Below, piece after piece: positions 21,661 through 23,403 of a DNA stretch of 64,000 bases. The position numbers were made by a program, and so were the translations under genes. This DNA comes from Thermodesulfobacteriota bacterium (lineage in GTDB: Bacteria; Desulfobacterota; Binatia; Bin18). The stretch spans positions 800,001 to 864,000 of the forward strand of contig OZ219926.1 of NCBI GenBank assembly GCA_964291405.2, given 5' to 3'. The notes below the pieces were generated by a model that had not been told where the DNA came from, ran no database searches, and worked only from the letters and a program-made list of their open reading frames with translations. The first letter of the stretch is position 1. Each line of letters starts with the position of its first letter.

Positions 21661-21709
21661 TACAAACGAGTCGGTATTCCCCGTATAGACTAATTGGTTG
21701 CGACTAGGC

Positions 21710-21907
21710 ATGAGCAACACATTGTTTGCACGATTCGGTTGTCTGCTGATCTGCTGTCTCGTTTTGAGCCAGTGTACACCAGCACGCCGCCTACCGCCGC
21801 CTGCACCTCAGCCGATCAGTGTGACCCCACCGTCCCCGCCGCCGACACCGCCGGTTTCAGCAGAAGAGTTGCTCAACCGGTTCAACATCACTCTGGACCG
21901 GGCGTAA
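21710..21907 (+). CDS. Short proline-rich lipoprotein-like ORF, possibly truncated
   Basis: Hydrophobic N-terminus, LSQC, Pro-rich linker, then abrupt stop. Confidence 0.35.
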   Translation: MSNTLFARFGCLLICCLVLSQCTPARRLPPPAPQPISVTPPSPPPTPPVSAEELLNRFNITLDRA

Positions 21908-21964
21908 TCCGGGTGGGGTTACGCCCAGCGCATTGACCCTGTAGGTACGCACACAGGGAGGTTA

Positions 21965-22552
21965 CTAAGCGGAGGATTGTGCCTCCTGCCCTGGAGTGGT
22001 CTCCGCGGGGTGCAGCGGGCAGGTCTGCCCAATCTCCAGACCGAGCACATGAATCAACCGACCGTAGCCGACAAAGGTCACAATTCGCCAGCCCAGTTCC
22101 AGGATTTCCGGCTCGGTAAAATGCTCGCGCAAATCGTCAAACAGCGCTGGTGAAGCCAGGCGGTGGTCTCCGGCCAGGATATCCGCAAAGCGAATCGCCG
22201 CTTTCTCGCGCGGTGTAAAGAGTTCACTCGTCTCGTACTGGGGCAGCGCTGCAATCAGTTCTTCCGTCACTCCTTGTTGCCTTGCCAAGGCAAACCGGGC
22301 GTGCATTCATAAATTGCAGTCGTTGCGCTCAGCCACCTTGAGGCGGGCCAACTCGGTCAGTTTGACGTCAACCTTGCCCCGTTCGCCTGACACCAACGGG
22401 AAATAGAAATTGATAAACGACTTGAACACCTCAGGCGCGTGGGCAAACACCTGTACGAACTCCGACCCGCCGAGTTCCTGGTCGTACTCGCGCATAATTG
22501 CCTGAAGTTCAGTGTCAACCTGATCAAAGGGAACCTTACTCACCCGATCCAT
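21965..22552 (-). CDS. Carboxymuconolactone decarboxylase/AhpD-like protein with in-frame UGA (putative selenoprotein, CxxU), 195 aa
   Basis: ORFs 22307-22552 and 21965-22306 are in the same frame, joined only by TGA, giving ELARLKVAERNDCNL-U-MHAR..FTPREKAAIRFAD. Confidence 0.82.
22277..22293 (-). promoter_or_regulatory. Putative bacterial SECIS hairpin
   Basis: TTGCCTT-GGC-AAGGCAA perfect stem starting 13 nt after the UGA, with a G-first apical loop. Confidence 0.65.
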
Positions 22553-22689
22553 GGGACTCCTCCTGCTTTTACAATATTTCCTCTCTTCCGCGATTTTTTT
22601 TTCAGATGAAAAAGCAAGTCCGCCACGCTGATGCGGGACACGGTCGCATTGACAGGCAGTTGTGTTTTCTGAACCATAAGAAGACCAGC

Positions 22690-23403
22690 ATGCCCGTCTA
22701 CCAACTGACTGAGGAACTCGTCTTTCCCAATCCTGAATGGGCGAACCCGGAAGGGCTGTTGGCGGTCGGCGGGGATCTGGGTCTCAAGCGTTTATTGCTG
22801 GCCTATCAACTCGGTATTTTTCCGTGGTATAGCGACGATTCCCCGATTCTATGGTGGAGTCCGCCGCAACGCTGTGTCATCGATCCGGACGGGTTTCATA
22901 TCTCCCGCAGCCTGCGTCGGCTGCTCCGGCAGGGGCGCTTTTCGGTCACGTTTGACCGGGCCTTTGAGGAGGTGGTCTACGCCTGCGCGGAAACCCGGAT
23001 TCGGAACGGAGAAGGTACCTGGATTACACCCGACATGCTGACTGCCTACTGCGCCCTGCATGAAGCCGGCTTTGCTCACTCGGCTGAGGCCTGGGACAAC
23101 GGTGAGCTTGTGGGGGGGATTTACGGAGTGAGTTTGGGGCGCGCGTTTTTTGGCGAGTCGATGTTCAAACGAGTGGCCAATGCCTCAAAAGTCGCCTTCT
23201 GCCGCTTAACGCAGCAGCTCCACCAATGGCAATTTCAATTGATCGACTGTCAGATCGTTAATCCGCATCTACAACGGCTTGGAGCGTATGAAATTCCACG
23301 CAGCGTTTTTCTCCAGCTCCTCGCCGAGGCCCGGCAGTTCCCGACCCGGCGCGGGAAGTGGTCATGCCTCAAGGCTGTGCCACTGCTTGACCGGTATCCT
23401 TGA
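22690..23403 (+). CDS. aat: Leucyl/phenylalanyl-tRNA--protein transferase
   Basis: GLLAVGGDL, GIFPWY, ILWWSP, FFGESMF, NASKVAF, LIDCQ. Confidence 0.95.
   Translation: MPVYQLTEELVFPNPEWANPEGLLAVGGDLGLKRLLLAYQLGIFPWYSDDSPILWWSPPQRCVIDPDGFHISRSLRRLLRQGRFSVTFDRAFEEVVYACAETRIRNGEGTWITPDMLTAYCALHEAGFAHSAEAWDNGELVGGIYGVSLGRAFFGESMFKRVANASKVAFCRLTQQLHQWQFQLIDCQIVNPHLQRLGAYEIPRSVFLQLLAEARQFPTRRGKWSCLKAVPLLDRYP

Follow-up and report, generated by a model that had tools for sequence, protein, structure and literature searches.

An in-frame UGA of an AhpD/CMD-like gene in a Binatia bacterium is very probably a selenocysteine codon

Within the window, by which we mean the whole stretch of 64,000 nucleotides that was analysed, we identified a complete, monocistronic gene on the minus strand (21965..22552) in which a UGA at codon 82 very probably specifies selenocysteine (Sec), giving a protein of the AhpD/CMD superfamily that is most likely a selenol/thiol oxidoreductase. 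The gene runs from an ATG at 22552-22550 to a TAG at 21967-21965, is preceded by the Shine-Dalgarno sequence AGGAGG (22559..22564, minus strand) 6 nt before the ATG, and encodes 195 aa when its single in-frame TGA (22309-22307, minus strand) is read through in translation. Its homologs begin at a Met that aligns with the Met of this ATG. A preliminary description of this DNA had placed a selenoprotein gene at the same coordinates without giving a strand; the coordinates are right, and the strand is minus. Reading 21965-22552 on the plus strand gives a meaningless translation with stops and was discarded. The two abutting ORFs that had been described, which share a frame and are split only by the TGA, are indeed present at 22307..22552 (81 aa) and 21965..22306 (113 aa), and translation places the TGA at the second position of a CxxC motif, within NDCNL-U-MHAR.

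The two ORFs are parts of one domain. The Pfam CMD domain PF02627 matches residues 40-124 of the read-through product with 42.1 bits against a gathering threshold of 23, and the TGA lies inside it. Since the domain straddles the TGA, neither half represents a whole domain, as the preliminary description had held. The residues C79-N-L-U82 lie within the PF02627 match, so that a CxxU motif in a domain of the AhpD/CMD type is present; codon 82 (22307..22309), the second position of this C79-x-x-U82 redox motif, aligns with Cys51 of the Pseudomonas aeruginosa protein PA0269. In both halves pN ranged from 0.06 to 0.30 versus 0.50 to 0.95 for pS. Where pS was unsaturated, which held for 8 of 9 comparisons of the C-terminal half and only 2 of 9 of the N-terminal half, dN/dS was 0.11-0.21. 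Judged by these substitution patterns, the N- and C-terminal halves are both under purifying selection.

We followed the codon-82 column through homologs at the level of DNA. A six-frame search found the protein in 60 of 61 related genomes, and each of the best 70 matches in these 61 genomes (E <= 8.7e-47) has a single in-frame TGA as its only internal stop. The match ranking just below these 70 is a decayed copy with three TGA and one TAG (genome G019). In a set of 26 loci, made up of seven copies from the gene's own genome and 19 same-genus orthologs, TGA occupies the column in 24, the other two being distant own-genome paralogs with Glu. The genome thus holds five paralogous copies of the Sec type with TGA at the column, that is, four paralogs beside the gene itself. 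All 21 further homologs, drawn from 20 loci of relatives and with identity falling to 30%, likewise have TGA. The preliminary description had looked to the pairing of Cys with TGA at this column as a check, and such pairing was found in a wider collection of 53 named genome and metagenome loci (in which L084-L087 duplicate places already counted): 51 could be mapped, of which 22 have TGA, 29 have TGC or TGT and none has TGG. At 59-66% identity, the full-length homologs in databases read CRLC here, with Cys at column 82. Two metatranscriptome libraries yielded contigs that run uninterrupted across the TGA. These contigs are 90-95% alike to the gene and so come from relatives; for this reason, and as carry-over of DNA is possible, we rejected them as proof of expression.

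A hairpin of the kind expected for a bacterial SECIS element lies just downstream of the UGA, within the coding sequence. Its stem begins 13 nt after the UGA and its loop 20 nt after, exactly as had been claimed, and the upper stem-loop (22277..22293, minus strand; 14-30 nt downstream) consists of a perfect 7-bp stem closed by a GGC apical loop (22286-22284). To follow this element through evolution we used an alignment of 31 distinct homologous 51-nt stretches starting at the UGA, with the helix at columns 17-23 and 27-33. Compensatory double changes occur at all seven stem pairs, and standard pairs fill 93.1% of the cells versus 35.5-49.8% after the 3' partner has been shifted by 1-3 columns. 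The covariation score was 0.671, compared with 0.057-0.175 for the shifted pairings, and none of 500 shuffles scored as high. The stem is kept though the peptides encoded by it vary (FALARQ, VALAKQ, YASARQ, TAQAVQ, SVQAGR and others). Moreover, 50 of 52 distinct TGA forms have a hairpin with >=5 bp, a G-led loop and a spacing of 17-21, versus 2 of 29 non-TGA forms. The loop differs by clade, being a GGC triloop at spacing 20 in the clade of the window's gene and an AGUU tetraloop at spacing 17 in a marine clade.

Folding energy was not distinctive. For 63 nt z was 0.02, and for 45 nt it was -1.31, with 22 of 200 shuffles folding equally well or better; support for the predicted hairpin therefore rests on covariation, and this comparative evidence is decisive. 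The published consensus for bacterial SECIS elements comprises a loop of 3-9 nt, a stem of 4-16 bp, a G in the first two loop positions, a spacing of 16-37 nt and an MFE of <= -7.5 kcal/mol (PMC13188914, Fig. 2 legend). The window's hairpin agrees with that legend in its GGC loop, its 7-bp stem, its spacing of 20 nt and, folded over the 45 nt that start at the UGA, its MFE of -14 kcal/mol. The upper stem alone reaches -6.3, above the -7.5 threshold. We also tried a stricter filter that demanded a contiguous stem with dG <= -7.5. It passed 23 of the 52 TGA forms and 3 of the 29 non-TGA forms, and the window's hairpin failed it at -6.3; it was set aside because the published model scores the whole element. 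In the MFE structure a lower helix flanks the upper stem (22268..22303, minus strand), tentatively extending the element. Its pairing, at 66.5% of cells with double changes in 2 of 5 pairs, is in part fixed by a conserved Gly codon, and we do not claim this extension.

The preliminary description had implied that the organism decodes Sec, and its genome (4.95 Mb in three contigs, 97.5% complete) bears this out. The host, an uncultured Candidatus Binatia bacterium, carries selA, selB and selD, with scores of 598, 393 and 308 bits that all exceed the curated cut-offs. Next to selA lies a tRNA-Sec that scores 69 bits, above the Rfam cut-off, and that ARAGORN identifies as tRNA-SeC (anticodon TCA). 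The selD gene is fused to a pyridine-nucleotide-disulfide oxidoreductase domain, an Ndh-selD fusion of the sort mentioned in the GOS paper (PMC2398784). Among the papers listed by our literature search, none linked Binatia with selenoproteins. Sponge metagenomes are among the runs that contain the stretch, one sponge run doing so at >=99% identity.

The gene itself stands alone between a divergent gene for Leu/Phe-tRNA protein transferase (aat) and a convergent gene for an APH-family kinase. At the same-genus loci the flanking aat is kept in 19 of 19 and the APH-kinase in 18 of 19. This conserved neighbourhood suggests no redox partner, and no AhpC/Prx partner gene is adjacent. A scan of 21700-22800 for promoters and terminators found nothing. 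Of the genome's other Sec paralogs, one has a divergently oriented GST gene next to it, and another precedes a DSBA-like gene that shares its strand.

Judged on sequence evidence, this is one intact gene whose internal UGA is predicted to be read as selenocysteine, and we weighed that prediction against three other accounts of the TGA. The TGA could be a real stop, leaving either a pseudogene or two small genes, an ORF of 81 aa and one of 113 aa that would start at the ATG directly after the TGA. Public protein collections do hold the Binatia orthologs only as C-terminal fragments of 108-116 aa (P0013, P0016-P0049), the split annotation that the preliminary description had foreseen. However, paralogs and homologs have a codon for I, Q, N, L, K, R or G directly behind the TGA, and none of these is a start codon; the TGA also lies inside both the Pfam domain and the predicted helix hairpin. 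Moreover, the TGA column persists in different families and classes, purifying selection acts on both halves, and homologs of the Cys form are uninterrupted; we consider a real stop very improbable. We give equally little credence to the idea that a variant code or near-cognate read-through puts Trp, Cys or Gly, and not Sec, at the UGA. In its favour, the database entries of four homologs (P0011, P0012, P0014 and P0015) show Trp at this column. Metagenome relatives of P0012 at 67-91% identity nevertheless have TGA in their DNA at 9 of 9 loci, so that the printed Trp is a translation artefact, and none of the 51 mapped loci uses TGG. TGA also closes 16 of the 38 long frames within the window, which indicates a standard genetic code; selA, selB and selD are without internal stops; and a variant reading would have to accommodate a complete Sec machinery together with a covarying hairpin at fixed distance. 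That the TGA is a mistake of assembly or sequencing, standing for TGC or TGG, has a negligible probability and is effectively refuted, since orthologs in 19 further genomes of the genus have it too. Contigs from two separate DNA runs also match 21900-22569 at >=99% identity; among the 40 of 46 differences listed, one falls within this interval, at 22469, and none at 22307-22309, an outcome which speaks against the base change that the preliminary description had named as a possible refutation. A Sec protein of 195 aa, as first proposed, is thus supported by the conserved UGA/Cys column, the covarying SECIS hairpin and the machinery.

The AlphaFold model of the protein (mean pLDDT 85.1, pTM 0.80) shows one all-helical domain, followed by a disordered tail at 182-195. 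In the model the active-site hairpin is formed by helices 63-76 and 80-92, with Cys79 and Sec82 at the start of the latter and Glu67 on the former. Foldseek returned AhpD-like and peroxidase-related structures with TM of 0.60-0.77. The active site of AhpD-like proteins has been described as a hairpin of two helices that carries a proton relay of five residues, which in PA0269 comprises Glu36, Cys48, Tyr50, Cys51 and His55 (PMC3141380). PA0269 (2O4D/2IJC/7XW1) is the closest solved relative of the window's protein (E 5.8e-13 by sequence, 8e-26 by profile; TMt 0.84-0.85) and has the same helix-hairpin site, its Glu36, Cys48 and Cys51 aligning with E67, C79 and U82. The two-helix hairpin with a Cys-X-X-Cys and a Glu 12 residues earlier is accordingly present, with U82 replacing the second Cys. 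E67 and C79 are invariant in our protein alignment (A1). The full five-residue relay, in contrast, is not kept: Arg86 stands in place of His55 (His137 in AhpD) and Leu81 in place of Tyr50 (His132). Arg86 is conserved in at least 90% of A1, Cys forms included. With two of the five relay positions lost, classical AhpD chemistry is not assured. The protein further differs from PA0269 in its Sec in place of Cys, in some 40 extra N-terminal residues forming two helices, and in the disordered tail.

The best NCBIfam matches, NF053654 'YciW-related (seleno)protein' (69.8 bits vs 310) and TIGR01926 'peroxidase-related enzyme' (45.6 vs 81.8), score far below their curated cut-offs, and all 24 members of A1 match both models likewise below the cut-offs. 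We place the protein in the YciW or 'peroxidase-related' branch of the AhpD/CMD superfamily. No curated NCBIfam model covers this subfamily, and automatic annotation will therefore not mark the Sec.

In the mechanism we propose, SelD would supply selenophosphate, SelA would make Sec-tRNA(Sec), and SelB would recognise the mRNA hairpin with its 7-bp stem and GGC loop and deliver Sec-tRNA(Sec) to the UGA at codon 82. C79-x-x-U82 would then form the redox centre, placed where the second helix of the AhpD hairpin begins, with Glu67 on the first helix. The second motif position is, we assume, the attacking nucleophile in the AhpD of M. tuberculosis. The U82 selenolate may similarly attack an oxidised substrate, be it a peroxide, a sulfenic acid or a disulfide, after which Cys79 would resolve the intermediate, giving a selenenylsulfide between U82 and C79 that a cellular thiol system would reduce. 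The product is probably a selenol/thiol oxidoreductase related to peroxidases, and the redox function that had been proposed for it we likewise infer from the motif and the fold. For comparison, PA0269 shows weak thiol-dependent reduction of H2O2 (PMC3141380).

Sec could also be inserted into an enzyme unrelated to peroxidases, such as a selenol-based reductive dehalogenase like Bmp8, a disulfide isomerase or a glutathione-linked reductase. By E-value the best Foldseek match is the tetrabromopyrrole debrominase Bmp8 (6OHI/6OHJ; 6OHJ at E 4.8e-6, TMq 0.74), which shares the fold over 177 aligned columns, and the family profile finds Bmp8 by sequence with E 1.1e-13. Bmp8 has been proposed to dehalogenate by oxidation of cysteines to a disulfide (PMC5577590), a cysteine-based redox mechanism. 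The missing AhpD relay His, the two paralogs beside the GST and DSBA-like genes, and the presence of the stretch at >=99% identity in two DNA runs, one of them a sponge metagenome, would fit such a function as well. Yet identity to Bmp8 is only 16-18%, and the match is no better than those to peroxidase-related proteins, whose structures are equal or better by TM (6K40 0.77, 2OYO 0.76); by profile PA0269 stands at 8e-26 vs 1e-13 for Bmp8. Neither halogenase nor bmp-like genes were found near the gene, which has no bmp cluster context, and the family occurs also in groundwater, planktonic and actinobacterial genomes. We regard an enzyme of this kind as distinctly unlikely. A more specific form of the idea, by analogy with Bmp8, would make the five Sec-bearing AhpD-like paralogs of this Binatia genome selenol-dependent dehalogenases or detoxifying reductases acting on brominated host metabolites in place of peroxidase adaptors. 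Were it true, a Bmp8-like fold would have been joined to deiodinase-like chemistry, with the loss of the His relay (Arg86) marking the shift in function. It draws on two points, the likeness in fold to Bmp8 and the absence of the relay His, and we strongly doubt it. The peroxidase-related oxidoreductase remains our preferred reading of the product.

Recoding mechanism, motif and family have all been described since 2005, and conceptually nothing here is new. Marine relatives at 57-64% identity (P0011, P0012, P0014 and P0015) share the TGA column. JGI names three of them (P0012, P0014 and P0015) AhpD-family or alkylhydroperoxidase-family enzymes and leaves P0011 nameless; the name 'alkylhydroperoxidase family enzyme' on these close homologs is, we presume, the COG2128 label. 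In the Sargasso Sea survey of 2005 an 'AhpD-like protein' (COG2128, CXXU) was represented by 27 sequences, with its SECIS shown (PMC1088965). The GOS survey of 2008 listed 'AhpD-like 1' (COG2128, CxxU) as its fourth largest family, with 299 selenoproteins vs 902 Cys homologs, and 'AhpD-like 2' (pfam02627) with 70 selenoproteins (PMC2398784). A 2026 review counts AhpD-like TIGR01926, CMD-like PF02627, AhpD-related NF041238 and a distant AhpD homolog, NF041047, among CxxU selenoproteins (PMC13188914), and BSepDB has a page for the AhpD-like family (PMC13326102). The novelty implied by the preliminary description accordingly does not hold, CxxU selenoproteins of the AhpD-like kind having long been catalogued (PMC1088965, PMC2398784). 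As far as the published descriptions of the COG2128 family go, with which rather than with lists of member sequences our comparison was made, the window's protein resembles it in its CMD/AhpD-type domain, the Sec of its CxxU motif, its many Cys homologs and a small SECIS with a G in the loop; it differs in its host, an uncultured Binatia bacterium.

The practical value of the result is a correction of annotation, as databases show the gene as a fragment of 113 aa or print its Sec as Trp. It also makes Binatia one more lineage in which several AhpD-like paralogs contain Sec. More generally, bacterial selenoproteins of the CxxU AhpD-like kind are routinely cut in two by gene callers.

The genome that carries the AhpD-like selenoprotein gene encodes four further members of the family at 34-62% identity (L023, L024, L025 and L026, at C3:3555121, 2657606, 1238766 and 1470213, respectively). 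In all four paralogs the CxxU column is again occupied by TGA, and each is furnished with a compensated hairpin of its own. The surroundings of two of these loci were also recorded: a divergent GST gene adjoins L023, while a DSBA-like gene lies downstream of L024 on the same strand. A tandem pair of Sec-containing paralogs of the family, separated by approximately 80 nt, was observed in a relative belonging to that same class (L051, G054:C17:73925-75721).

Several database proteins from marine metagenomes (P0011, P0012, P0014 and P0015) are printed with Trp at the Sec column and could mislead by giving the false impression of a Trp homolog. At the column where database entries print Trp, the DNA of the close relatives contains TGA in nine of nine cases (L124-L131 and L133). 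The printed Trp probably reflects the use of a TGA=Trp code during gene calling on short contigs.

The apical loop of one ortholog (L047 / L086, from the related genome G024) reads GCC rather than GGC, thereby losing the second G while retaining the first, and the protein is changed from Ala to Pro. Another related genome, G019, contains a decayed copy with three TGA and one TAG in a broken frame (C1:5589588-5590162), apparently a pseudogene, together with intact copies of the gene elsewhere. Distant homologs from Methylomirabilota / Rokubacteria MAGs (L113-L117) retain the TGA and a downstream hairpin, but the motif is missing its first Cys, the sequence there being G-V/S-P/Q-Y-U. Their products would carry Sec on its own, with no resolving Cys at -3.

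The selD gene of the host (L010:262-2529, on G000:C3) encodes a 755-aa protein in which a pyridine-nucleotide-disulfide oxidoreductase domain (PF07992) is joined to the AIRS/AIRS_C domains of selenophosphate synthetase. An Ndh-SelD fusion of this kind is noted in the GOS paper (PMC2398784). Sequencing runs containing the stretch at window positions 21900-22650 mostly bear the label of a sponge or a coral metagenome. An identity of at least 99% was seen for two DNA runs, one labelled sponge metagenome and the other bearing a coded organism; since one of these two may be the source sample, the labels are only a hint of the organism's habitat.

Between the convergent gene ends lies an 8-bp inverted repeat with an 11-nt loop (window 21900-21926; arms GGGCGTAA and TTACGCCC), which was not called by the terminator scan of 21700-22800 because no T-run follows it. 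On the other flank, where the Leu/Phe-tRNA protein transferase gene diverges, its longest ORF (22498-23403, + strand) extends into the 5' end of the selenoprotein gene. Within this ORF, similarity to the Pfam model begins only at residue 97, and the true start of the transferase is therefore probably further downstream.
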